Part shown: in pieces, positions 3,038-61,838 of the stretch
Layout: each line of letters opens with the position of its first letter
Position numbering within the stretch: the stretch's first letter is position 1
Source of the DNA: Acidobacteriota bacterium
Lineage (GTDB): Bacteria > Acidobacteriota > Terriglobia > 20CM-2-55-15
Assembly (NCBI GenBank): GCA_023265365.1
Contig: JAHFTY010000001.1
Coordinates: forward strand, 3,656 to 67,655
Direction of reading: 5' to 3'
DNA: 64,000 nt
Made by a program: the position numbers and the translations under genes
The notes under the pieces: model-generated
Told to the model about the DNA's origin: nothing
Databases searched by the model: none
What the model saw: the letters and a program-made list of their open reading frames with translations, nothing else

Positions 3038-5491
3038 TCAGTTGCCTGCGGTGGCGTCCTGAAGCAACTGATTGAGCTTTTCGACATCCACCGGCTTCAT
3101 CACGAGCGGCAGCGAATAATCTTCGGCAAATTGCCGGATTTCGTCACTCATGGTGTCGCCGCTGATCACAATCGTCTTTACCGAGACCGGCGGAATCATC
3201 GCCTGAATCCGTTTGACGATGCTCTTCCCGTCCATCTCCGGCAGGTGCATGTCCAGCAGCAGCACATCGAATTTGTTCTTGGAAAGCAGCTGCAGGGCGC
3301 GGCTTCCGGTCGTGGTGCACTCCACGTGGTGTCCCATCCTGCCGAGGGAATTCTCGAGGATGTTGAGGATCTCGGGTTCATCGTCGACCGCCAGAATGCG
3401 GAGAACGGCGGCGGTTCGCAACTTCGGCGGTGAAAGGTAGGGCGCGATCGGCACGAGGGGAAACTCGATTTCGAAACGTGTGAAGGTCTCGCCGTCGCTC
3501 TCGACCTGGATCCTGCCGTCATGGTCGACGATGATCGAGTGAACAATCGACAGGCCGAGCCCGGTGCCCTGGCCCACATCCTTCGTGCTGAAGAACGGGT
3601 CGAAGATGCGGTCGCGATTCTCTCTGAGGATGCCGACGCCGTTGTCCGAAACCTCAATACGAATCCGTCCGTCGCGAATCTTCCGGCCATGGATCACGAT
3701 CAGCCCCCGCGATCTTTTCGCCTGGCGAATGGCGTCGCGCGCGTTGTCGATGAGGTTGAGAAAGATTTCCTGCAGCAAGGTGTATCTCCCCATCATTGTC
3801 AGGGAGGACGGCAGGTCGAGGTCGGTCGCAATGTTGTAGGTGGCGAGTTCCGTGGCTTTCAAATGCTCGACGGACCGGATCACGTCGACGAGATCCACGA
3901 ACGTCTTGTCCGATTCCCCCGGCCTGCTGAGCGTCAGGAAGGTGTGGACGATGTCCCGGGCCCGCTCTGCTGCGGAAGCAATGGCGGCAACCTGGCGGCG
4001 GCCCTCGAAAGTCAGACCGGAATAGTCGCGCAGCAGTTGAGCATTGCCCAGCACGATGGCGAGCGGGTTGTTGAGTTCGTGTGCGGTTCCCGCAATCATC
4101 CGTCCCAATGCGGCCATCCGTTCGGTCTGGATCAACTGCTGCTGGCGCTTCCGCTCTGTGGTGATGTCCACGAGAAGCTCGACGCCGCCCTTGCTGTCCT
4201 TTCCGGCGGTGATCGGCGCGAACTCAAGCTGATAGTTCAGATCCCGAATCTCCACCGCCGCCGAAAATGGTCTTTGTGCTTTGAGTTCACACCAGTCGCA
4301 CGGAATGTTCCGGCCGAAAACAACGCTATAACAGGGGCCGGTCGATGCGTTGAAGCGGCTGCGGAACACGTCGTTGCTGAGAACGACGTTGTAGTCACCA
4401 TCGACAATATAGATCGGCTGGCGCAGGGAACTGAGGGTCACGTCGAGCTGGGTCCGGCGATACTCGGATTCCTCGACGACGATCCGGTGCCGGAAGTGCA
4501 GCAGAGCCGTGAGCATCACGACTTCTCCGAGCGTGAGCCACCTTCGAACGTCCTGCAGGTCCTGCTGTCCGGTGACGAGGAGCGCGGAAACCAGATGAAA
4601 GGCAGTGATCGCGGCGATCAGTGTCAGGGAAAAGCCGTACCGGGATGGAATCAGGACCGCGTCGATGGGCTGCACCCTCCGGGCCGGGGCGGAAGCCACC
4701 GCAAGCGACATGACCCAGAAGGCCGCGCACCAGAAGGGATCGTTGTAAGGCATCCCGAAGATCAGGAACGACATCGAGGCCGCTGTATAGAGTGTCAAAC
4801 CCGTCGCGATCAAACGGTACGTTTTCCCCCATCCGGAACTTCGGGCTTCCCAGGCCACCACCGCCGCAGTCGCCGCAATGCCGGTATTCAGCATGACGTT
4901 CGCGACTGAGCTATAGAAAGTTCCCGCAACCTGCAGATGAACGATCGACGGGAGAATGAAAAAATAGCCGATGTAGTAGCCGATGATGCTCAGCGCAACG
5001 CTCGTATCGATGAGGTGCAGCCGGCGATTCAACTCCGATCCGGCATAAAACGGCCGGTAGAGGATGGCGCCCAGAATCAGAAGCTTGAACATCCAGTACG
5101 CCGTGTCCTGCACCGCGGATAGCGGAAAGCCGTAGACCCGAATGGCGATCCACAGAACCTGACCCAATCCCCAGAACGTATGGGCCAGAGCGAGGGCCTG
5201 CCAGAACCGTGAGTTCAGAAGTCCTTTGCGCCACACGAAGAACGCCGGCAACACCGCAATGGCCAGCATTCCGAAATTTCGGACGAGTGGGCTTAACGGT
5301 TTGATGACAAAACCGAGAAGGTACAAGGCGAGATAGGTAACGTAGACGAAGTGAATCTTTCGGTTCACGCGGGAATTTATATCCCAAATGGAACTAGGGA
5401 TCGAATAGAATCCGCCGTTTATGGCATCCAGGCGCGAGCCTTTGATCTTTGCCCTGACGGTCTCCGGTGCGGCGGCGCTGTTGGTTTCCAT
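3038..5491 (-). CDS. Hybrid sensor histidine kinase/response regulator (membrane N-terminus, PAS-like, HisKA, HATPase, C-terminal receiver)
   Basis: H-box AHELNNPLA, ATPase G-boxes, and a C-terminal receiver with DDE..D..K pattern (ILAVDDEPE...LLLDMHLP). The annotated 5' end overlaps the divergent ligase gene by ~70 bp, so the true start may be internal (for example GTG near 5368). Confidence 0.8.
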   Translation of the reverse strand: METNSAAAPETVRAKIKGSRLDAINGGFYSIPSSIWDINSRVNRKIHFVYVTYLALYLLGFVIKPLSPLVRNFGMLAIAVLPAFFVWRKGLLNSRFWQALALAHTFWGLGQVLWIAIRVYGFPLSAVQDTAYWMFKLLILGAILYRPFYAGSELNRRLHLIDTSVALSIIGYYIGYFFILPSIVHLQVAGTFYSSVANVMLNTGIAATAAVVAWEARSSGWGKTYRLIATGLTLYTAASMSFLIFGMPYNDPFWCAAFWVMSLAVASAPARRVQPIDAVLIPSRYGFSLTLIAAITAFHLVSALLVTGQQDLQDVRRWLTLGEVVMLTALLHFRHRIVVEESEYRRTQLDVTLSSLRQPIYIVDGDYNVVLSNDVFRSRFNASTGPCYSVVFGRNIPCDWCELKAQRPFSAAVEIRDLNYQLEFAPITAGKDSKGGVELLVDITTERKRQQQLIQTERMAALGRMIAGTAHELNNPLAIVLGNAQLLRDYSGLTFEGRRQVAAIASAAERARDIVHTFLTLSRPGESDKTFVDLVDVIRSVEHLKATELATYNIATDLDLPSSLTMMGRYTLLQEIFLNLIDNARDAIRQAKRSRGLIVIHGRKIRDGRIRIEVSDNGVGILRENRDRIFDPFFSTKDVGQGTGLGLSIVHSIIVDHDGRIQVESDGETFTRFEIEFPLVPIAPYLSPPKLRTAAVLRILAVDDEPEILNILENSLGRMGHHVECTTTGSRALQLLSKNKFDVLLLDMHLPEMDGKSIVKRIQAMIPPVSVKTIVISGDTMSDEIRQFAEDYSLPLVMKPVDVEKLNQLLQDATAGN

Positions 5492-6605
5492 TGCCGCAGC
5501 CGAAATACTTCTCGGAACCGCGCTCGCGATGTGGATCGTTTCGCGGTCGCCCCGGCCGAACCTGCCGTCTTACTTCGTTCCAATGTGCGCGTTCATCGGC
5601 ATGACGTTCATATCCGTGTTCCTGACGCCCGATCCGCCGATCAACTGGGCCTTGCGGAAAACCATTCTCTTTGGAATGACCCTCCTCGCCGCCACTTTTG
5701 TCACCACTCTGTGGCGGGCTCGCACTTCGCATGCAGCGCTTCTGGCGGTCGCCGCCTTGACATCCGCCGTGGGTGTGATCCAGTTCGCCGTAGCCTACTC
5801 GAAATATCGCGCGACGCAGCAACTCGCCGACGACCCGATGATCCTCGCGCGTATGCGAGGGTTCATGGGTCACTGGCTGACCTTCAGCAGCGAGCAGCTT
5901 CTGGTCTGGGCCGCCGCCATTCCGGCCATGGTCTATCTTGGAAGGCGCTGGTGGCTGCCGATCACCACAGTGGGAACCGCGCTGATCCTCAGTTTCACTC
6001 GAGGCGTCTGGCTGGGCGCCGCAGCGGTTGTCGCGCTGGTTTCAGCGATGATGCCCAAACGGCTCCTGCTCCCTGTCCTTCTTCCTTTGTTCGTGATCGC
6101 GGCAGCGGCGTCCGGACTGATCTACCATCGCGTTTCGGCAAGCATCAACAACGCGGATCACACATTCATGCCGGATACCGGCCGGATCGAATTGTGGAAA
6201 GCCGGACTTCTGATGATTCGGGAACATCCCTGGTTCGGGGTCGGCCCGGAGCGTGTTGAAGCCGAGTTTCCGAGACATTATCGGGGACCGAATATCGAAA
6301 ACATCTATCACGGGCATCTTGAAAACAATTTCCTGACGATTGCGGCGGAACGCGGACTCCTTTGCTTCGCGACGTTCCTGTGGTTTCTGCTGGAGCTCTA
6401 TGCCGGGCTTTTTCGACTGGTGAAGGCCGCCGACGCCGCCACGCGTTGGCTTCCGATTTCGGGACTGGCGGCTCTCACGGGATTTCTGGTTACCGGTTTT
6501 TCCCAGTTTAATTTTGGCGATTCGGAAGTCCTGCTTTTGTTCCTTTTTGTCGTATCGATACCATTTGGGGTTTTGCATGAACGAGATGTTGAAGAAGTTA
6601 TCTGA
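5421..6605 (+). CDS. O-antigen ligase (WaaL/Wzy_C) family membrane protein
   Basis: About 10 TM helices and a central loop containing TRGVWLGAAAVV and FGVGPE, which matches the Wzy_C pattern. Confidence 0.65.
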   Translation: MASRREPLIFALTVSGAAALLVSIAAAEILLGTALAMWIVSRSPRPNLPSYFVPMCAFIGMTFISVFLTPDPPINWALRKTILFGMTLLAATFVTTLWRARTSHAALLAVAALTSAVGVIQFAVAYSKYRATQQLADDPMILARMRGFMGHWLTFSSEQLLVWAAAIPAMVYLGRRWWLPITTVGTALILSFTRGVWLGAAAVVALVSAMMPKRLLLPVLLPLFVIAAAASGLIYHRVSASINNADHTFMPDTGRIELWKAGLLMIREHPWFGVGPERVEAEFPRHYRGPNIENIYHGHLENNFLTIAAERGLLCFATFLWFLLELYAGLFRLVKAADAATRWLPISGLAALTGFLVTGFSQFNFGDSEVLLLFLFVVSIPFGVLHERDVEEVI

Positions 6606-33592: not shown

Positions 33593-33621
33593 AAACCGTT
33601 AGAGTAGCACAGCGTGGCGGG

Positions 33622-36447
33622 TCAAGACTTGCCCATGAGGACGAATGGAGCCCAGTAGAACGGATGCGGAAAAGTGGCCTTAACTTCGACAATCGCGTCG
33701 CGAAGAGCTTTCGGTTTGGAAAGCCCGGAATTGAGGCCCAAATAGAACCGGCGCATCAACTGGGCCGTCGATCGGTCGTTCACCGTCCATAAACTGACGA
33801 CGAGCGAGGGAGTCCCCGCGTAAAGGAATCCTCTTGCGAGCCCCAGCAGTTCATCTCCCTCCCAGACCGCGCTCATTCCGGTTTCGCAGGCGCTGAGCGT
33901 CGTGAGTTCGGCGCCAAGCTGAAGATTGAAAATATCGAACAGGTTCAGCCAGCTATCGCCGAGCCGGAGAGACGAAAACATGGGGTTGTCACTTCTGAAA
34001 ATCCCATGCGCGGCGATGTGCAGCTTTCCGGCGGAGGGGCCAAACTCCTTCAGCTTGTCCAGACGCGCTTCCGGCCCCGTAAATATCCGCGCTTTGGGGA
34101 GCAGTTCGCGAAGCGTTTCGACTTCGTCGTTGATATAGGGGGTCAGCTCATCGGCAACCGCCAAAACGAGATCTTCGTTTCGATGCGGGACATTTTTCTC
34201 GCGGCAGATGCGGATCACCGAGGCGCTCGCCCCATATACGATGTCATGCCGATCGATCAGATACGACTCCCCGTCGTACAAGGCGTGAAACGGAACGTAG
34301 TGAAGAACATTGTGCGGAATGATCACCAGACTGCGGCCTTCGACGAAAGGTTCGATGCGTTCTATCAACTGCCGGTAGAGCGTCCGAAGGTGGAACTGCG
34401 TTGCGGTCAGCAGCATGCCGCCGTAGCGTTCGAGATACTTCGGATCCAAATGAAACTTCGTGAGCTGGAAGTTCAATCCCTTGAGCGCTGCGCGCACGTC
34501 TTTGGAGGACGCGAGATCCCGCACAATGTGAAAGTCGTCCGGCGTAATGACGAAGGCCAGAAACTGGTCGCCGATCACGTAGTACTCGACCATCGCTTCG
34601 TTGCTTTCCAGCATTCGCTGAACATCGGCGATGGAAGACAACTTCATGCTTTGCAGCGTCGCCCAGCCCGATTTCTCCGAACCCACGCCGCGCAGCAATT
34701 CCACAAGCTCGCGCTCCCGGTGAGAAATTCCTTCTTTGGTAACGGGGTCCGACACCCCCGCCGTCGCCGACGCGCCGACTTGATTCAGCCGGCTGTAAAG
34801 CATGTTCAGTTCTTCCCGTATCTTGCGGATTCGCAGCAGCCGGGGTGACTCTTCAGCACCGGCATCCCACACGGTCTCGAGATTTCTTTCGAGAAGGTCG
34901 ATCAGCGTTCTCGACTTGGACTTTTCAACAAAGTCGAATGCAGTTTGGTCGTCTCCTTTTTTCAGCTGTAAATTGACGAGGTTTTCGTAGACCTGGTACT
35001 TGTCCTTGCCGAAGGACATCTGCAGTTCATCCAGTCGAATGTTCGTCCGCAACGACTCCATCTCTGTGATGGCCTTGCGATACAGATCTTCGGCATCGTC
35101 CAGAGCGCCATCGACCTCTTTTAATCCGCCCAGGATGTTATGGCACTGATACGAAACCCAGGGTGCATGCAGGCCTTTCAACTCTTCGAGGGCCCTCTCG
35201 GCCTCTTCCAGCGCGAAAGCCGGATTGTCCAGTTCCTGCCAGCTTTGCGCCGACAGCAGTCTCGCGTTCGCGGCACGAACCGGGACCTGCTGCCTCTCGA
35301 AAATTTCAGCCGATCTCCCGGCGAGCTCCTGCGCCTCCGAAAACCGCTCCTGGCGGATCAGCAACTGGGCGCGCCAGAGATCGACTGCGGCAACCCAAAT
35401 TTCATTTCCTTCCCTTTCGAAAATGTCCCGCGCTTTGATGAAGGCAATGTCGGCTTCGTTGTCTCGCAGAGTTTTGAATTCAGCCACGCCGAGAAATGTG
35501 AGACACATCGCCGCTTCATACTTGTTTCCGAGAGTAGCGAAAATCTGATACGCCGACTCCGCAAGTCGGGCGGCGTCTTCGAAAAGGTTGAGCTGGAGGT
35601 AGATTTCAGCCCGGTCGCGGTCACAGAGGCCGATTCTCCGCGTGTCGTTGGCTTGCTCGTATTTGGCGCGGACTTGCTCCAGAAGACGCAGCGCCGTGGA
35701 GTAGTTTCCCCGGTGAAAATGCATGCGCGCCAAATCGCGGTCGGCGATGCTCGCCCAGAGGTGCAGTCCTTGCTGTTCACTGAAACGCTTCGTTGATTCA
35801 AAAGCGTTGATCGCCTCGTCGAACCGGTTCATATCGGTCAACGTCACGGCGCGCCCTTGCCCGATGGCTGCAATTTGATAGGGATTGTCCGTCATCTGCA
35901 GCGCCCGATCGTAGTGTTCGAGCGATTCGGTAAAACGATTGAGCCGATAGTAGAAATTCCCCAGCGCAATCTCGAGATTGCAGAGATAGCGGGCGTCACC
36001 CGCTTTCTCCAGAGCCGCACGAGCACGGGGTTCGAGTTGAATGGCATCTTCGTACAAACTCAGGTATGACATATTGTCCATTTGGACAACGAGCGTTCGC
36101 CCCACCTCGCTATCAACCTGGGCCTGGCTAAATAAATCGACCGCCCGTTCAAACAAGGGCTGGGCTTCAGCACATTTCTTCCGCGTGTACAGAACCTGGG
36201 CTTTTGCGCGAGTCGCGTGGGCGGCGGCCAGCGGCGTATCGGCGAGAGCAGCGACTTGTTGTGCGGTATCCGCCAGGATTTCAGCGAGTTCGAGATCGCG
36301 CGGCAATAATTCGCGAATCCGGTTCGCAAGATGTTCGATGAATTCGGACGCAGACGGAGGAGGGGTGTCTGAGACAAAGGCCCATTGCTGGGCCGCATCT
36401 CTGATCTGGGAGAGCGTGGCCAGATACTGATCGGGGTTGAAAGTCAC
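33622..36447 (-). CDS. TPR-repeat + CHAT domain protein (caspase-like protease family)
   Basis: About 600 aa of TPR-like repeats, then a C-terminal CHAT domain with a His/Cys dyad context (HIAAHG...LSACETG). Confidence 0.8.
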   Translation of the reverse strand: MTFNPDQYLATLSQIRDAAQQWAFVSDTPPPSASEFIEHLANRIRELLPRDLELAEILADTAQQVAALADTPLAAAHATRAKAQVLYTRKKCAEAQPLFERAVDLFSQAQVDSEVGRTLVVQMDNMSYLSLYEDAIQLEPRARAALEKAGDARYLCNLEIALGNFYYRLNRFTESLEHYDRALQMTDNPYQIAAIGQGRAVTLTDMNRFDEAINAFESTKRFSEQQGLHLWASIADRDLARMHFHRGNYSTALRLLEQVRAKYEQANDTRRIGLCDRDRAEIYLQLNLFEDAARLAESAYQIFATLGNKYEAAMCLTFLGVAEFKTLRDNEADIAFIKARDIFEREGNEIWVAAVDLWRAQLLIRQERFSEAQELAGRSAEIFERQQVPVRAANARLLSAQSWQELDNPAFALEEAERALEELKGLHAPWVSYQCHNILGGLKEVDGALDDAEDLYRKAITEMESLRTNIRLDELQMSFGKDKYQVYENLVNLQLKKGDDQTAFDFVEKSKSRTLIDLLERNLETVWDAGAEESPRLLRIRKIREELNMLYSRLNQVGASATAGVSDPVTKEGISHRERELVELLRGVGSEKSGWATLQSMKLSSIADVQRMLESNEAMVEYYVIGDQFLAFVITPDDFHIVRDLASSKDVRAALKGLNFQLTKFHLDPKYLERYGGMLLTATQFHLRTLYRQLIERIEPFVEGRSLVIIPHNVLHYVPFHALYDGESYLIDRHDIVYGASASVIRICREKNVPHRNEDLVLAVADELTPYINDEVETLRELLPKARIFTGPEARLDKLKEFGPSAGKLHIAAHGIFRSDNPMFSSLRLGDSWLNLFDIFNLQLGAELTTLSACETGMSAVWEGDELLGLARGFLYAGTPSLVVSLWTVNDRSTAQLMRRFYLGLNSGLSKPKALRDAIVEVKATFPHPFYWAPFVLMGKS

Positions 36448-36518
36448 AACTCCTACGCTTCCTGCTGGATGTGACCTGCGCTACAGGGGGCGGCGTCCGT
36501 TCGCCGGAATGAGCCGCT

Positions 36519-37130
36519 TTACGAGTTTGCCCGGTGCACACAGAAGAGAGTGATTTGCCCTTCTGGCAGGTCCACGGACAGATGATACGTGTCCTTTGGC
36601 ACCTCGTCGAAGGAGAACTCTCCAACCAGGTTAGTTCTGGTTTTGTACCGGACGATGCCGTGGGACTCCAGCTTTACTGGAGTATTGTCGAAGAATTTGG
36701 CACCACTTGACAAGACTTGTCCTACAAGAGTGATTCTATCGTTCGCTTCCATTGATTCGATTTTCACGTCGACGTCAACATCACCGGCTCGGAAAAGGAG
36801 CTGCCGCGGGGGGGCGCCAACTCGCCGCATACCGGCGAGGGCCGGCTGATCAAACGTATCAAACACAAGAGCAGCGATGAATTTTCGGATTTTTCCGCCG
36901 GACGCAGGTTGAATAACCGGCTGGAAAAGTTCGATTCCCCACTGGACGATCTCAGAAGGCGGTTCGCAGAGGGACTCCTGCTGCAGGCGGGAGACCAGCC
37001 CTTGCAGTTCCTCGCGCAATTCAGAACATTCGGAACAAACGATCAAATGCTGCTCGACTGCAGCGTTATCGGTTCCCTGAGCCTGTCCATCGACATAACC
37101 CATAATGTTTTCAATACTTAGATGTCGCAT
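36519..37130 (-). CDS. Anti-sigma factor, zinc-binding ZAS-type N-terminus (HxxxCxxC) with beta-rich C-terminal domain
   Basis: N-terminal EQHLIVCSECSE matches the H-x3-C-x2-C ZAS motif. No TM segment was seen. Located immediately downstream of the ECF sigma factor gene. Confidence 0.6.
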   Translation of the reverse strand: MRHLSIENIMGYVDGQAQGTDNAAVEQHLIVCSECSELREELQGLVSRLQQESLCEPPSEIVQWGIELFQPVIQPASGGKIRKFIAALVFDTFDQPALAGMRRVGAPPRQLLFRAGDVDVDVKIESMEANDRITLVGQVLSSGAKFFDNTPVKLESHGIVRYKTRTNLVGEFSFDEVPKDTYHLSVDLPEGQITLFCVHRANS

Positions 37131-37217
37131 TCCTTCGCTCCTGGTCTCTAAACCTTTGAAATCATCCTATACATCTACAATTGAGGACTCGAAGCCGGGA
37201 AAAATACCAAAACTTTG

Positions 37218-37790
37218 CTATTTGATGCCGTGGCGCCTCAGAATGGCCCGCAGTTTATCCAGACAGCGTGCCCGCGTTGGCCCAATGCTGGGCACCGGCA
37301 TGGCGAGGGTCTGACTGACATCCTCATAACTCGGCGTCCGCGGATCGAAATAAAGAAGCTCGATCAATTGCCGGCATCGATCCGGAAGTTGATCGACGGA
37401 TTCCCGGACGGTTTGCTGCTCTTCAATCTGCACTCGGATATCTTCAAGATTCTCCGTCGGATCCGGCGCCTCCTCGAACTCCTCCTCCGAGCCGCCTGTT
37501 TCTCGAAACCGCTGAGAGCGGACATAGATACATTGTCGTGTGGTCGTCGTGATGAGCCAGGCGCTAACCTTGGTTTCGTCCTTCAGTTCATGCAGATGTT
37601 CGATCAATTTGAGGCAAACCGACTGAAACACGTCCGCAGCGTCCGTGGTGGAGAAGCTGAATCGAACCGGGATGGAATAGATCAGCCGCCGGTAACGCAT
37701 GATGAGCGCTTCCCATGCCTGCGAGTCACCCTTCAGGCAGAGCGATACCAGTTCCGTGTCCGAGTGGGTTTTGTAATTTGCGGGAATCAC
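37218..37790 (-). CDS. RNA polymerase sigma-70 factor, ECF subfamily
   Basis: Region 2 (AWEALIMRYRRLIYSI...DAADVFQSVCLKL) and a region 4 HTH (SYEDVSQTLAMPVPSIGPTRARCLDKLR). Confidence 0.85.
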   Translation of the reverse strand: MIPANYKTHSDTELVSLCLKGDSQAWEALIMRYRRLIYSIPVRFSFSTTDAADVFQSVCLKLIEHLHELKDETKVSAWLITTTTRQCIYVRSQRFRETGGSEEEFEEAPDPTENLEDIRVQIEEQQTVRESVDQLPDRCRQLIELLYFDPRTPSYEDVSQTLAMPVPSIGPTRARCLDKLRAILRRHGIK

Positions 37791-38068
37791 TAACGCATCT
37801 TCCTGGCTTTCCAGAAGGACTGAAGCGAAAAGGCCAGCATCAGAACGGAGAAAAAGCCGGACCCAAAAACTGCAGAGCCGGTACGCAGGTCCCAGTTGCT
37901 GAAGTGGGCCGTTGTCTTACGAAACTCGGTGAACGTGTTCAACATAAACATGACGGCCAATGCCAAAAACAATGCGCCCATCATTTCCAGCCACAACTTT
38001 CTGGCAGACCGCAGGAAATCAGCGAAAATGAGTTTGAACTTGCCGGGCATAATGCAATGGTCTGACAT
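37790..38068 (-). CDS. Small two-TM membrane protein, first gene of ECF sigma operon
   Basis: A 92-aa protein with two hydrophobic helices. Its stop overlaps the sigma-factor start codon. Confidence 0.4.
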   Translation of the reverse strand: MSDHCIMPGKFKLIFADFLRSARKLWLEMMGALFLALAVMFMLNTFTEFRKTTAHFSNWDLRTGSAVFGSGFFSVLMLAFSLQSFWKARKMR

Positions 38069-38161
38069 ATTAGCACTGGTCTCGCACGTGCTGATTAAAG
38101 ACGTATAAAAGAGGTCGAGCGTACCAAAGAGTCGTAAAAAGGGGACCGGCTAATTTGAGAA

Positions 38162-38518
38162 TTGACCAATTTCGCGCAAACTGCGTACGATTGCCTGATT
38201 GTTTGTCGCCAGCGGGAGGGCGTTTTGCAACTGGATGACAATCTGAAGCAGTTGATGAAAGAGCTTGGCGCCGCGATAAACGACGCCCTCTCCGACTCTG
38301 AAGAAATCAGCGCAGCCATTCAAAATGTCCGCAATGCCGGCTACGACGTTTTCCTCGTGCTCGAAGCAACGATCGGATTCAACCGCCGAACCAAGGCCGA
38401 CGGCAGTGAAGACGTCAACGGTTTGAAGAGCGCGGACATGAAGCTAAAAGTCACGTCTCAGGACTTGAAATTCCTCCGCTCGCTCAAGATCAGCGTCGAA
38501 GACCTGGACAAGCAGTAA
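38162..38518 (+). CDS. Hypothetical protein
   Basis: A track ORF with no recognisable motifs. A GGGAGGG RBS precedes an internal TTG/ATG, so the real start is probably ~38224-38254. Confidence 0.3.
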   Translation: MTNFAQTAYDCLIVCRQREGVLQLDDNLKQLMKELGAAINDALSDSEEISAAIQNVRNAGYDVFLVLEATIGFNRRTKADGSEDVNGLKSADMKLKVTSQDLKFLRSLKISVEDLDKQ

Positions 38519-40117: not shown

Positions 40118-40209
40118 AGGTGGCGGAGTATAGCATGTGAGATTGACTTTGACTTGAACCCACAGGGATAATCGGAAGCCTATCCCACACGGAATGGGGG
40201 TGTTATTGA

Positions 40210-59119: not shown

Positions 59120-61483
59120 ATGAAGACGAACGGCCCAGCCACACAGTCTCTTCGAACGGACCTCGAATTCTCATCGCAGCGACACCTCGGCAAAAACTAC
59201 ATCGTCGTCAAGGACCCGATCACCAAGCGCTATTTCCGTTTTACTGAAAACCAGAACGTGATTATCGATCTGCTGCGAGCGGAAAATGACCTCTCCGTGT
59301 TGGCCGCTCGCGCTTCCGAAAGGCTTGGAGGGTCGATCTCCATCAACACCGTTCAGGCCTTTCTTCAGTCTCTCGAAGGGAAGCTGCTGCTGGACACGGA
59401 AGCGGTTCGCGAAAAGCTGGCCGATCTGAAAAGCAAGAAACTCGAGGATCGAAATCTCCTTTACTGGAAACTCGCCTCGATTAACCCGGAGCGCGTTTTC
59501 GCCTGGCTTGTGCCTCGCACCAGATGGGCCTTCAGCCGATGGTTTCATGTTCTTGCATGCATACTGATCGTCTCCGGTTTTACGCTGAACTACATTCACC
59601 TAAGAGAACTGACCGTCGACGTTCAGGATCTGTTCAATTTGAATGGGCTGCTACTGGTGTGGCTCGTCACGATGATGGTCGTGACGCTCCATGAGTTCGC
59701 TCACGGACTGACCTGCTGCCATTTTGGAGGAAAGGTGCAGGAGATCGGCTTCATGCTGATCTATTTCCAACCCGCTTTTTACTGCGACGTGAGCGATTCG
59801 TGGATGTTCCCGCCCAAGAAACAGCGAATGCTCGTTACCTTTGCGGGCGGATATTTCCAGTTGTCGATTTGGGGTCTGTGCACGGTCCTATGGCGTATCA
59901 CCGCTCCGGACGCGTTCGTCAACCAGCTTGCTCTGGTCGTCATTGTCTTTGCGGGTGTCCAAACATTGGTGAACTTCAACCCGCTGATCAAACTCGACGG
60001 TTATTACATGCTAAGCGATTACCTGGAAATCCCCAACCTTCGGTCCAAGGCTGTTCATTCGATCTGGGATCGATTTACCGGACGCGGCCGGCCAATACCG
60101 TCTCGCGAGAGGCGGCCACTGATGATCTACGGACTCGCCTCGATCGCGTTTTCGACAACTTTGCTCATGTATGTTTATTCCGCTCTGTATACTTGGGCCA
60201 CTTCCCAGTATGCTTTTGCCGGCTTAGTTGGTTTCGTCATGTTCTCAACGTACACGCTTCGCAGGACGGCGGTGGAATCCATTTCCGGTATCCGGGCAGC
60301 AGTCACTCACGCTTCGTTTCGCAGGTACAGAAACGCGGCAATCCTTATCGCCGCCATCATCGTCGCCTACATCGGACATTGGGAACTCAAGATCCCCGCC
60401 GAATTCAAAGTGATCCCACGAAGCGAGATGACTGTGAGACCGGAGACCGGCGGAATCATCGTTGAGCTGATGGTCCACGAAGGAAGCCGTGTCGCGAAAG
60501 GTGAAGTTCTGGCCCGTCTCCGGGATTTCGAAAAGCAAAAAAAAGTGTCCGAAGTGAATGGCGAGCTTGAACAGAAAATGAGCGGGCTGGCCCTGCTTCG
60601 CGCCGGTGCCCGTCGCGAAGAAATCGATCGAAAACAAAAGCTGGTGGACACCAAACAGGTCGAACTCGCCAATTCGCGGCGGAATCAGGAACAGCGCAAC
60701 CAGCTCGGACAAAGCCTTGAGCGAAAGAAGTCCGAACTGCAACTGGATCAACAGATATTGGCCAGAGCGCACGAACTGTTCGCCGGCGGCTTGATTCCCC
60801 GAGCCGAACTGGAACGGTCGCAGACCGCGGTTACCGTGCGTGAGCGCGAAATCGGCGAAATCGAAGCGGCCATCCGTGTGGTCTCCGAGACCGGAGATCG
60901 CGAGTCGGATTTGAAATACCGGGAACTGGCGGAAGCCGAAAGTGAATTGCGCCTCATGCAGGCGGGCAGCCGGCCCGAACAGATCCGCGAAGCCGAGGCG
61001 GAGGTAAGGAAATTGCAGGAGCAGGCTCGAATTCTCAACTCGGAACTCGAAAAAACTGACATTCGTGCGCCCATCGACGGAGTGGTCAGCACACCGTTTG
61101 TCGAAAGAAAACTCAATCAAAGTCTGGCCGCTGGCGACGAGCTGTGCAAGATCGTCGACACCAGCCGGGTAACAATCGAAATGCTGGTGCCGGAAAAGGA
61201 GCTGGCAGACGTCCGCGCAGGAAACCATATCTCAATGAAACTCCGGAGCTTCCCATCGCTCGATGTTCAGGGCCGCGTCGATTTCATTGCGCCCGTCGCC
61301 CAGACGATCAACGGCCAACAGATGGTCGTCGTCCGAAGCGAGATTCCGAATGAGCAGATGACGTTGAAACCGGACATGACCGGTGTCGCCAAGATCTTTG
61401 CAGGCGATCGCCGAATCATCGATCTTTTCTCGAGACGTTTCATACGTTGGATTCGCACCGAATTCTGGGATCTCCTGCCTTAA
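59120..61483 (+). CDS. Fusion protein: PqqD-like peptide-recognition (RRE) domain + S2P/M50-family intramembrane zinc metalloprotease + HlyD-type periplasmic adaptor
   Basis: The region aa ~25-95 (YIVVKDPITKRYFRFTENQNVIIDLL...VQAFLQSLEGKLLL) resembles PqqD/RRE. A TM block carries HEFAHGLTCCHFGG (HExxH) and NFNPLIKLDGYYM (the NxxPxxxLDG S2P motif). The C-terminal ~330 aa has the HlyD pattern: a TM anchor, beta-strand, long coiled coil (EQRNQLGQSLERKKSELQL...), then IRAPIDGVVS... Confidence 0.6.
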   Translation: MKTNGPATQSLRTDLEFSSQRHLGKNYIVVKDPITKRYFRFTENQNVIIDLLRAENDLSVLAARASERLGGSISINTVQAFLQSLEGKLLLDTEAVREKLADLKSKKLEDRNLLYWKLASINPERVFAWLVPRTRWAFSRWFHVLACILIVSGFTLNYIHLRELTVDVQDLFNLNGLLLVWLVTMMVVTLHEFAHGLTCCHFGGKVQEIGFMLIYFQPAFYCDVSDSWMFPPKKQRMLVTFAGGYFQLSIWGLCTVLWRITAPDAFVNQLALVVIVFAGVQTLVNFNPLIKLDGYYMLSDYLEIPNLRSKAVHSIWDRFTGRGRPIPSRERRPLMIYGLASIAFSTTLLMYVYSALYTWATSQYAFAGLVGFVMFSTYTLRRTAVESISGIRAAVTHASFRRYRNAAILIAAIIVAYIGHWELKIPAEFKVIPRSEMTVRPETGGIIVELMVHEGSRVAKGEVLARLRDFEKQKKVSEVNGELEQKMSGLALLRAGARREEIDRKQKLVDTKQVELANSRRNQEQRNQLGQSLERKKSELQLDQQILARAHELFAGGLIPRAELERSQTAVTVREREIGEIEAAIRVVSETGDRESDLKYRELAEAESELRLMQAGSRPEQIREAEAEVRKLQEQARILNSELEKTDIRAPIDGVVSTPFVERKLNQSLAAGDELCKIVDTSRVTIEMLVPEKELADVRAGNHISMKLRSFPSLDVQGRVDFIAPVAQTINGQQMVVVRSEIPNEQMTLKPDMTGVAKIFAGDRRIIDLFSRRFIRWIRTEFWDLLP

Positions 61484-61838
61484 AGGACTGCCGTCCTACC
61501 ACAAGAGCATAATTCTTGCGAAAGTTTCGGTATTTTTATTCCAGTTTTTCCGCTCTTTAGCTGTGACAAGCGGAAACTGAATTTCCTTTGCACAGGGCAA
61601 ACCCGTCGAAAGGCGGGGACGCAAAGCTTCGAGACTACCGTCCCACGAATAAAAAGATCATGGATTATTCGTGTCGACCACGTCGGTCGGGCCGCCACAG
61701 CGCGTGAGCTTTGGAGCCGTCTTGTTTTCCACTGTTTCGCAAACCCGGAATCGGGCACTCGTCCGACGTGTGAATTCGGGTCTAAACGTCGCTCAATCGT
61801 CGAAAACGTTTTGTTCTAATCCGTCCCTGGAGGAAAAC

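Follow-up and report, generated by a model that had tools for sequence, protein, structure and literature searches.

The locus described here comprises four minus-strand genes at positions 33622-38068 of the window, a 64,000-nt stretch of DNA from an Acidobacteriota bacterium (GenBank assembly GCA_023265365.1, contig JAHFTY010000001.1, positions 3,656 to 67,655). In the direction of transcription, the genes encode a small membrane protein, a sigma factor of the extracytoplasmic function (ECF) type, a soluble zinc-binding anti-sigma (ZAS) factor and a large TPR-CHAT protein with a caspase-like protease domain (Table 1). The initial annotation, made from the letters of the sequence, had proposed four co-directional open reading frames (ORFs) for a protein with two transmembrane (TM) segments, an ECF sigma factor, a ZAS-type anti-sigma factor and a TPR-CHAT protein. 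The coordinates were confirmed, and the domain matches show that the assigned identities are correct. The genes were also said to overlap or nearly to abut. This is true of the membrane gene, the stop codon of which overlaps the start codon of the sigma gene by 1 nt, as had been claimed (TAGTG, 37792-37788). It is not true of the other two boundaries: the gap between the sigma and anti-sigma genes is 87 nt and that between the anti-sigma and CHAT genes is 71 nt. These are the widest gaps in a longer co-directional array, which runs on past the CHAT gene into mcm, oppD, oppF and tgt (a 29 nt gap, followed by overlaps). No intrinsic terminators were predicted between the genes of the module, and no paralogues of the four proteins were found elsewhere in the 64-kb window.

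Table 1. Positions of the genes, protein domains and regulatory elements in the window
Feature	Position	Strand	Remarks
Membrane gene	37790-38068	minus	92 aa; ORF list
Sigma gene	37218-37790	minus	190 aa; GTG start
Anti-sigma gene	36519-37130	minus	203 aa
TPR-CHAT gene	33622-36447	minus	941 aa; GTG start with AGGAG before it
TPR repeats	residues ~120-640 of the CHAT protein	minus	Pfam
CHAT caspase-like domain	residues 687-940 (33628-34389)	minus	Pfam
Codon of catalytic H814	34006-34008	minus	alignment to Sb TPR-CHAT
Codon of catalytic C854	33886-33888	minus	alignment to Sb TPR-CHAT
Two-part promoter-like motif CAAAGTTTTGGTATTTTT-N14-CTCAATTGTA, core GGTATTT-N16-CTCAAT	37176-37217	minus	phylogenetic footprinting and position weight matrix (PWM)
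Second motif copy GAAAGTTTCGGTATTTTT-N15-GCTCTTTAGC	61520-61561	plus	PWM 25.4 bits
c-di-GMP-I-GGC riboswitch	61587-61700	plus	59.3 bits, E 1.9e-11; begins 26 nt after second motif copy
Purine-rich leader CAGCAGGAAGCGTAGGAGTT	36448-36467	minus	contains the ribosome-binding site of the CHAT gene
Extended -10-like element TGnTAnnCT, TGGTACGCT	38118-38126	minus	~50 nt 5' of the membrane-gene ATG
TGnTAnnCT element TGCTACTCT	~33601-33609	minus	5' of mcm
TGnTAnnCT element TGCTATACT	~40127-40135	minus	5' of orf211

The product of the sigma gene is a member of the ECF (group IV) branch of the sigma-70 family. It matches TIGR02937 (sigma70-ECF) with 84 bits (cut-off 42.9) and Sigma70_r2 with 43.8 bits, and its region 4 is weak (16 bits). 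No equivalog was reached in NCBIfam, where the best match is PRK12519 (69.8 bits, cut-off 222). The nearest solved structures are of the AlgU/sigmaE type (8z6g, 6in7 and 1or7). The pairing of the sigma factor with the anti-sigma factor is supported by P0355, a metagenome representative of 432 aa, since it joins homologues of both in one ORF: a sigma homologue (residues 11-193, 38% identity) is followed by a full-length anti-sigma homologue (residues 224-415, 28% identity to the protein of the window). P0355 is either a true sigma–anti-sigma fusion or a read-through artefact. The two proteins presumably bind each other, and the anti-sigma factor would hold the sigma factor inactive.

The anti-sigma factor is assigned on sequence to the class I ZAS anti-sigma factors, with predicted zinc ligands. 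It passes the Pfam model zf-HC2 (23.4 bits, cut-off 22.2), has a weak match to CarboxypepD_reg, and its profile matches the anti-sigma domain of RsiW. The zinc motif H28-x3-C32-x2-C35 is accompanied by H3; in 46 anti-sigma homologues H3, H28 and C32 never vary, and the conservation of C35 is at least 90%. No hydrophobic or TM segment is present (maximum KD19 0.93). The earlier description of a soluble anti-sigma factor with an H-x3-C-x2-C motif is thus borne out, as is that of its beta-rich C-terminal domain. In the AlphaFold model, which was built from the 46 diverse sequences and has a mean predicted local distance difference test score (pLDDT) of 70.7, a helical N-terminal domain is found together with an eight-strand Ig-like beta-sandwich at residues 111-198; a model from 15 close homologues (pLDDT 54) was not used. 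The beta domain is the best-conserved part of the protein (0.80, vs 0.50 for the anti-sigma domain). Residues ~70-108 are conserved in sequence, yet have a pLDDT below 50 in the model, and are a candidate cleavage or docking segment. The median identity to the window protein is 73% for the anti-sigma factor vs 61% for the sigma factor. In close relatives the C-terminal half of the anti-sigma factor (residues 82-203) is near-invariant and the sigma-binding helices vary, which is the opposite of the usual sensor-domain pattern.

The 941-aa product of the last gene is classified by its sequence with the CHAT, or clan CD caspase-like, peptidases. Its match to the Pfam family CHAT PF12770 has an E-value of 5e-60 (203.7 bits, cut-off 24), and TPR families are matched in addition. 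The CHAT protease is probably active, because its dyad H814/C854 aligns with the catalytic residues H585/C627 of the Sb Craspase TPR-CHAT, is invariant in 24 unique orthologues and lies inside the most conserved stretch of the protein, residues 841-880 being 98% conserved. The His/Cys dyad noticed earlier is therefore intact on alignment. The homologous residues of the Desulfonema ishimotonii protein, H615 and C658, are needed for the cleavage of Csx30 (PMC10028731). Neither a signal peptide nor a TM segment was found in the TPR-CHAT protein, which is predicted to be cytoplasmic. Its gene is preceded by the purine-rich leader, which in most orthologues is a tandem ACGTnCAGGAAGCG repeat. Over the whole anti-sigma/CHAT leader (36448-36519, minus strand), most of the orthologous loci L002-L087 contain a tandem direct repeat, ACGTGCAGGAAGCGAG...ACGTAGGAAGCGTTGGAG, with two to three AGGA motifs. 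The repeat is often preceded by a CGGAAnnnTTCCG hairpin; in the window it is collapsed to one copy, CAGCAGGAAGCGTAGGAG. The leader repeat could be a site of translational control or of protein binding. A GGAAG-N17-19-CGTT pattern in the same leader was considered as an ECF promoter and rejected; it overlaps the conserved GGAG Shine-Dalgarno sequence 5-6 nt before the GTG, its spacing is variable and it occurs in a single copy in the window.

The conservation of the gene set was assessed in 95 orthologous loci, which the arrangement counts cover; a locus was regarded as downstream-informative if at least 300 nt of sequence were available 3' of the anti-sigma gene. The metagenome scan with the C-terminal sub-alignment gave 80 loci. 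In the genome and metagenome scans the host of the locus is Acidobacteriota (Terriglobia; Candidatus Sulfopaludibacter and Solibacteraceae-like metagenome-assembled genomes, mainly from soil). The sigma gene lies 5' of the anti-sigma gene in 65 of 66 informative loci, and the CHAT gene lies directly 3' of the anti-sigma gene in 74 of 76. This adjacency alone is weak evidence, because the whole neighbourhood (rpsU, orf211, GT9, orf118, the module, mcm, oppDF and tgt) is syntenic in most loci. The module is also intact in loci that lack mcm or have a transposase gene in its place (L090, L091, L094 and L096), and it is kept where insertion sequence elements are found at its upstream border (L088 and L089) or at the 3' end of the CHAT gene (L092). 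The most distant orthologue (L095; 45% identity for the anti-sigma factor, 47% for CHAT) has unrelated downstream genes. Two loci without the CHAT gene, L006 and L007, retain the CHAT leader and the first codons of the gene (GTGAAGCCCACC), and the locus L093, the anti-sigma factor of which is 82% identical to that of L006, has a CHAT gene. The two losses are read as secondary deletions. An exhaustive representative search of the anti-sigma family, followed by a further search, led to two metagenome contigs of a paralogous branch, L099 and L100. Their sigma factors share 35-38%, their TPR-CHAT proteins 36.5-38% over nearly the full length and their anti-sigma factors 29-31% identity with the proteins of the window. 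The gene order in these contigs is sigma–CHAT–anti-sigma; genes for a Peptidase_S8 and for an HD-domain protein come next.

We regard the sigma factor, the anti-sigma factor and the TPR-CHAT protein as a functionally linked triad, because their association survives changes of the flanking genes, the CHAT-less loci are deletions, and the triad recurs in distant relatives in another order. The module is judged to be vertically inherited at one chromosomal position in Acidobacteriota. The initial annotation had called for a check of whether the quartet is conserved. It stands as a unit as far as the linkage of the CHAT gene, its independence of the flanks and the recurrence of the triad are concerned; this does not extend to the membrane gene, which is outside the deep core. 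This gene precedes the sigma gene in 58 of 59 informative orthologous loci, and the overlap of the two is kept at 1 or 4 nt. The membrane gene appears to be translationally coupled to the sigma gene. Its product has hydrophobic segments at residues ~24-49 and 64-82, is weakly conserved (median identity 42%), and has a TMEM260-like family, under the cut-off, as its sole match in Pfam. The small membrane gene is missing from the distant triads of L099 and L100, and is best described as a clade-specific addition outside the deeply conserved core.

The transposase genes of these loci are situated at 3281-5378 in L088/L089, 11055-12587 in L090 and 10488-11573 in L092, at both borders of the module. 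They lie between orf118 and the membrane gene, after the CHAT gene or overlapping its 3' end, and none was found between the four genes. In L011 (Ga0070739_10014284, 4858-5807) the membrane gene is followed directly by a shortened anti-sigma gene with no sigma gene between them, and the anti-sigma genes of L007 (8001-8599) and L096 (7001-7620) are frameshifted. These anomalies may stem from errors in assembly or in long reads and not be biological.

The anti-sigma factor belongs to a broad family of proteins of ~200-220 aa, with 954 clusters at E<=1e-3 (clusters of 50% identity). In the four loci with paralogous anti-sigma genes (L097-L100), a Peptidase_S8 gene is next in all four and an HD_5 phosphohydrolase gene is present in three. 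In L097 the anti-sigma N-terminus is also present as a truncated duplicate, which has a separate copy of the promoter-like motif.

The four genes had been taken for a single operon. Their common direction agrees with this; a conserved promoter-like motif between the sigma and anti-sigma genes does not. The motif can be written as AAAGTTTtTGTATTTTT-N15-CTCAaTAtAG. All 61 loci in which the gap could be measured, the CHAT-less L006 included, have its GTATTTT anchor, with the second block at a fixed spacing, and the core TGTATTT-N16/17-CTC is retained in distant orthologues. A PWM built without the window sequence gave 32.0 bits at 37217-37176, compared with a null maximum of ~9 bits (the maximum of shuffled sequence). 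The only other match above the null on either strand of the 64 kb is the second copy on the plus strand, and no further strong copies were found in 650 kb of related loci. The second copy sits where the promoter of the c-di-GMP riboswitch would be expected. The paralogous anti-sigma genes have in front of them a motif that is related to this one yet distinct from it, CCTATATTTT-N15/16-CCCTTATT (twice in L097, and in L099 and L100). The motif therefore differs by sigma clade and is always located 5' of the anti-sigma gene. Promoters of the sigmaE/AlgU type follow the pattern GGAACTT-N16-TCAAA, which the gap motif resembles. We consider the gap motif the best candidate for the target promoter of this sigma factor, and the second copy a candidate for a further target of the same sigma factor or regulator. 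Two other readings of the gap motif were rejected by eye: it contains no GG-N10-GC of sigma-54 promoters, and no consistent TTGACA/TATAAT pair at 17 nt as in canonical sigma-70 promoters.

The surroundings of the second copy contain, on its 5' side (59120-61483, plus strand), a gene for a 787-aa fusion of an intramembrane metalloprotease of the type associated with ribosomally synthesised and post-translationally modified peptides (RiPP) and an HlyD adaptor. The metalloprotease part is daptide_HExxH-like (232 bits, below the cut-off). After the riboswitch (to 61940, plus strand) only small ORFs follow, for example one of 33 aa, MIEKDAALLLDIVEVEELELKIAPDSGSVPIIE. The region may be a riboswitch-controlled peptide locus that shares its promoter type with the anti-sigma gene.

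The initial annotation had also proposed an ECF promoter, GGTAC-N17-CGTC, upstream of the membrane gene. The string is present at 38125-38100 (minus strand). Phylogenetic footprinting does not support its proposed role: the pattern occurs in only one of 43 unique orthologous upstream regions. A promoter of the GGAAC type (GGAAC-N15-18-CGT) was found in none of the 43. The GGTAC falls inside the conserved TGnTAnnCT element TGGTACGCT, which is present in 32 of these upstream regions. The window contains only six occurrences of TGnTAnnCT, and three of them, those of the membrane gene, mcm and orf211, are on the correct strand just 5' of a gene start. The element is likely an extended -10 element of the housekeeping type and a candidate promoter of the membrane and sigma genes. 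Before mcm (ATG 33592) the element lies at -17 and before orf211 (ATG 40117) at -18, a leaderless distance, which suggests leaderless transcripts for both. The mcm element further suggests that this gene has an independent promoter directly after the CHAT stop codon. The four genes are probably not one simple operon. We propose a model of three units, in which the extended -10 element would serve the membrane and sigma genes, the gap motif the anti-sigma and CHAT genes, and the second extended -10 element mcm, oppDF and tgt.

Closer to the membrane gene, a conserved block (T)GAGCACGTTTGTAGCC (in the window AGCACGTGCGAGACC, 38078-38092, minus strand) lies 6-41 nt 5' of the ATG in 27 of the 43 unique loci. 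Its distance to TGnTAnnCT varies across the orthologous loci L002-L087, and it is non-coding in L002 and in the window. The GAGCACGTTTGTAGCC block could be taken for part of a membrane ORF extended at its N-terminus; this reading was rejected, since in L002 the block is out of frame or broken by a stop, and in the window it lacks a start codon. The divergent gene orf118 (38162-38518, plus strand) is small and conserved (53-95% identical in relatives) and has no family match. Its listed TTG start falls within a conserved sigma-70-like promoter, TTGACC-N18-TACGAT (38162-38191); the true start is probably near 38225 (LQLDD...), giving ~97 aa. The GT9 heptosyltransferase gene is convergent with orf118, and the 3' ends of the two overlap by 29 nt.

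We propose that the TPR-CHAT protein is a signal-activated cytoplasmic protease that cuts the soluble anti-sigma factor and frees the sigma factor, which in turn re-induces the anti-sigma and CHAT genes. We favour this reading tentatively, as one that falls a little short of being probable. It is drawn from the conserved triad, the intact active site, the recurrent protease neighbours of the anti-sigma family and direct precedents. The initial annotation had described associations of CHAT and ECF proteins as mechanistically uncharacterised, which is outdated: the TPR-CHAT protein Csx29 cuts Csx30, an inhibitor of a sigma factor, within a flexible loop (PMC10028731), and DdvA joins a ZAS anti-sigma factor to a TPR-CHAT part, with self-cleavage proposed by its authors as the first step of sigma release (PMC11506125). 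In the proposed mechanism, the TPR region would sense a cytoplasmic cue, upon which the His814/Cys854 site would become active. The CHAT domain would cut the anti-sigma factor, most likely in the segment ~70-108 between the sigma-binding helices and the beta-sandwich, and the freed sigma factor would take RNA polymerase to its promoters. One target is probably the GGTATTT-N16-CTCAAT motif 5' of the anti-sigma gene, through which the anti-sigma factor and CHAT would be made again and the switch reset; the copy before the c-di-GMP riboswitch would be a likely further target. The membrane and sigma genes are probably on a separate transcript from the extended -10, housekeeping-type promoter. The analysis shows the identities of the genes and domains, the intactness of the dyad, the conservation of the linkage of the three genes and that of the motifs. 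We infer the binding of the sigma and anti-sigma factors to each other, the cleavage of the anti-sigma factor by CHAT, the cut site, the signal and the reading of the internal promoter by this sigma factor.

Several observations weigh against this mechanism. The sigma factor has no placement in an ECF group, and the gap motif lacks the usual 'AAC' core of ECF -35 elements, so it could be recognised by another sigma factor or by a regulator. The genes behind the motif in L099 and L100 are those for the anti-sigma, S8 and HD proteins, and CHAT is not among them, so CHAT is not co-regulated in every case. The pair of sigma and anti-sigma genes can persist without the protease, as L006 and L007 have kept both after the deletion of CHAT; in L006 the anti-sigma factor is intact, and its beta domain is the same, highly conserved one. 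The linker motif of the anti-sigma factor, itself conserved, is common to the whole broad family, and at least one paralogue, L098, has neither a CHAT nor a sigma gene nearby.

A rival reading makes CHAT the output of the circuit. The beta-sandwich or the zinc site would then be the sensor, the freed sigma factor would raise the anti-sigma factor and CHAT, and the protease would have other targets in the cell, its role being, for instance, remodelling, an arrest of growth or programmed death. The position of CHAT directly 3' of the anti-sigma gene, behind the conserved internal promoter-like motif, and the persistence of the pair in L006 and L007 agree with this, as do the paralogues, which place other hydrolases (Peptidase_S8 and HD) behind the same kind of motif, and the anti-sigma factor's C-terminal domain, which is its most conserved part and is counted here as sensor-like. 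We nevertheless consider CHAT as output unlikely, since in L099 and L100 the CHAT gene lies 5' of the motif, between the sigma and anti-sigma genes, and yet stays in the module, and since the characterised TPR-CHAT/ECF systems place the protease upstream of the sigma factor (PMC10028731). The TPR-CHAT protein could also be coupled to the sigma factor without cleaving the anti-sigma factor, either as a sensor or scaffold that binds to the beta-sandwich or linker by partner switching, or by cutting the sigma factor or the membrane protein. The TPR region of ~650 aa is a typical protein-binding scaffold, the extreme conservation of the beta-sandwich points to a partner protein that is likewise conserved, and in a type III-B cascade it is the putative sigma factor that a caspase-like protease cuts (bioRxiv 10.1101/2023.06.23.546230). 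Against a role without catalysis stand the invariant dyad and an active-site stretch conserved to 98%, and the membrane protein as the substrate is at odds with its absence from the distant triads; this kind of coupling appears decidedly unlikely.

That the genes are mere neighbours through regional synteny, with no functional link, would account for the syntenic neighbourhood of most loci and for the gaps around the anti-sigma gene, the widest in the array. It was already disfavoured by the intact module under changed flanks and by the homologous triad in another order and context at ~30-38% identity, and has very little probability left. A role in anti-phage defence similar to that of Craspase or DdvA, in which the sigma factor would control a caspase-like effector of abortive infection, is suggested by the best NCBIfam match of the CHAT domain, Csx29 (5.6e-16), and by the known TPR-CHAT/ECF pairings, which are defence-related (PMC10028731, PMC11506125). 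This match reaches 58.5 bits with the Csx29 model NF041237, the cut-off of which is 300, and the CHAT domain alone contributes to it. PADLOC-DB 2.0 gave, at E<=0.01, zero families for the four proteins and two neighbours, the immediate flanks showed no cas genes, and the flanking genes are housekeeping genes, with vertical inheritance of the module at one chromosomal position. Defence is thus hardly probable at all.

The proposed cleavage of the anti-sigma factor by CHAT can be extended to a wider picture, which is more speculative and on the whole doubtful. The locus would be a free-standing housekeeping 'caspase switch', in which the TPR-CHAT protein senses an endogenous cue, cuts the conserved disordered linker of the ZAS anti-sigma factor and frees an ECF sigma factor, the regulon of which includes the c-di-GMP-riboswitch unit. 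It would correspond, outside CRISPR, to the type III-E Csx29-Csx30-sigma arm and to the fused DdvA, both of which might have evolved from it, and would be part of a much larger undescribed family of soluble anti-sigma factors paired with dedicated proteases, either CHAT or subtilisin-like. TPR-CHAT/ECF wiring has so far been understood in immune contexts only, namely Craspase (type III-E CRISPR) and DdvA (a CBASS/CRISPR island). The locus of the window contains the same three functions as separate soluble proteins in a core position of abundant soil Acidobacteriota, with a second gene order in relatives. If the protease gates the anti-sigma factor, caspase-type regulated proteolysis would be a general bacterial route of sigma activation, beyond defence. 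The system would be simple to reconstitute, because it consists of three soluble proteins and requires neither an RNA guide nor a membrane. It also offers two predictions, a clade-specific promoter motif and a second target before a c-di-GMP riboswitch, and it draws attention to a broad unnamed family of soluble anti-sigma factors (~950 clusters at 50% identity) that often adjoin protease genes.

No description of a stand-alone triad of sigma factor, anti-sigma factor and TPR-CHAT protein was found in the searchable literature or in the main text of the ECF re-classification, where CHAT and caspase contexts go unmentioned. A literature search for CHAT domains in Acidobacteria returned no papers. 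Soluble ZAS anti-sigma factors are known from the pairs ChrR-sigmaE of Rhodobacter sphaeroides and RsrA-sigmaR. ChrR has the zinc ligands H6/H31/C35/C38 and a C-terminal cupin sensor. The anti-sigma factor of the window is likewise soluble, has H3/H28/C32/C35 with the same spacing (the upstream His is 25 residues away) and carries a C-terminal beta-rich domain, and one homologue is annotated as 'anti-sigma factor ChrR' in JGI. Unlike the cupin of ChrR, this domain is an Ig-like, CarboxypepD_reg-like sandwich, and a CHAT protease gene is attached. The match to RsrA is far below the cut-off (19.5 vs 62.5 bits). In the RseA/DegS/RseP system, which is cited in PMC10028731, membrane-bound and periplasm-sensing regulated proteolysis frees ECF sigma factors of the sigmaE/AlgU type. 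The window sigma factor is nearest to AlgU/sigmaE, and its proposed release would also involve the destruction of an anti-sigma factor by a dedicated signal-sensing protease; here the anti-sigma factor lacks a TM helix, and a cytoplasmic protease of the caspase-like type is the candidate. A further precedent is a type III CRISPR system summarised in bioRxiv 10.1101/2023.06.23.546230, in which the Lon-SAVED protease CalpL cuts the anti-sigma factor CalpT and the ECF sigma factor CalpS is released. Its logic is the one proposed here, with a signal-activated cytoplasmic protease, a soluble anti-sigma-like substrate and a freed ECF sigma factor. It differs in that the window protease is of the CHAT and not the Lon type and has neither a cyclic-oligoadenylate sensor domain nor a CRISPR context.

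The closest parallels are the two TPR-CHAT systems. In the type III-E Craspase arm (Csx29, Csx30 and CASP-sigma; PMC10028731), as in the window, a cytoplasmic His/Cys TPR-CHAT protein is encoded beside an ECF-type sigma factor and a soluble protein. In Craspase this soluble protein binds and so inhibits the sigma factor, and cleavage of its loop relieves the inhibition; the likeness of the window locus consists in the gene set and the dyad alignment. The window locus has no Cas7-11, CRISPR RNA (crRNA), Csx31 or CRISPR context, its inhibitor is a classical 203-aa ZAS anti-sigma factor and not Csx30, and it is a core chromosomal locus. The activating signal cannot be a target RNA presented by a Cas effector. 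The low score of the CHAT protein with the Csx29 model, the housekeeping flanks and the lack of PADLOC matches place it outside Csx29. With DdvA-DdvS of Myxococcus xanthus (PMC11506125, PMC6061681) the locus shares an ECF sigma factor, a ZAS domain and a TPR-CHAT part with a conserved His-Cys dyad. DdvA couples the ZAS domain physically to TPR-CHAT in one transmembrane polypeptide (ZAS, TM helix, periplasmic TPR-CHAT), which dimerises and needs RseP. In the window the two are separate soluble proteins without a TM segment, encoded by genes 71 nt apart, and DdvA is not among the PDB sequence matches of the window CHAT protein; two genes, neither with a product containing a TM-like segment, set the locus apart from the DdvA type. 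DdvA controls a CBASS/CRISPR island, whereas PADLOC detected no defence genes at the window locus. Taken together, the module is real, conserved and functionally linked, and is kin to these known protease-linked ECF sigma/anti-sigma switches, from which we infer its mechanism.

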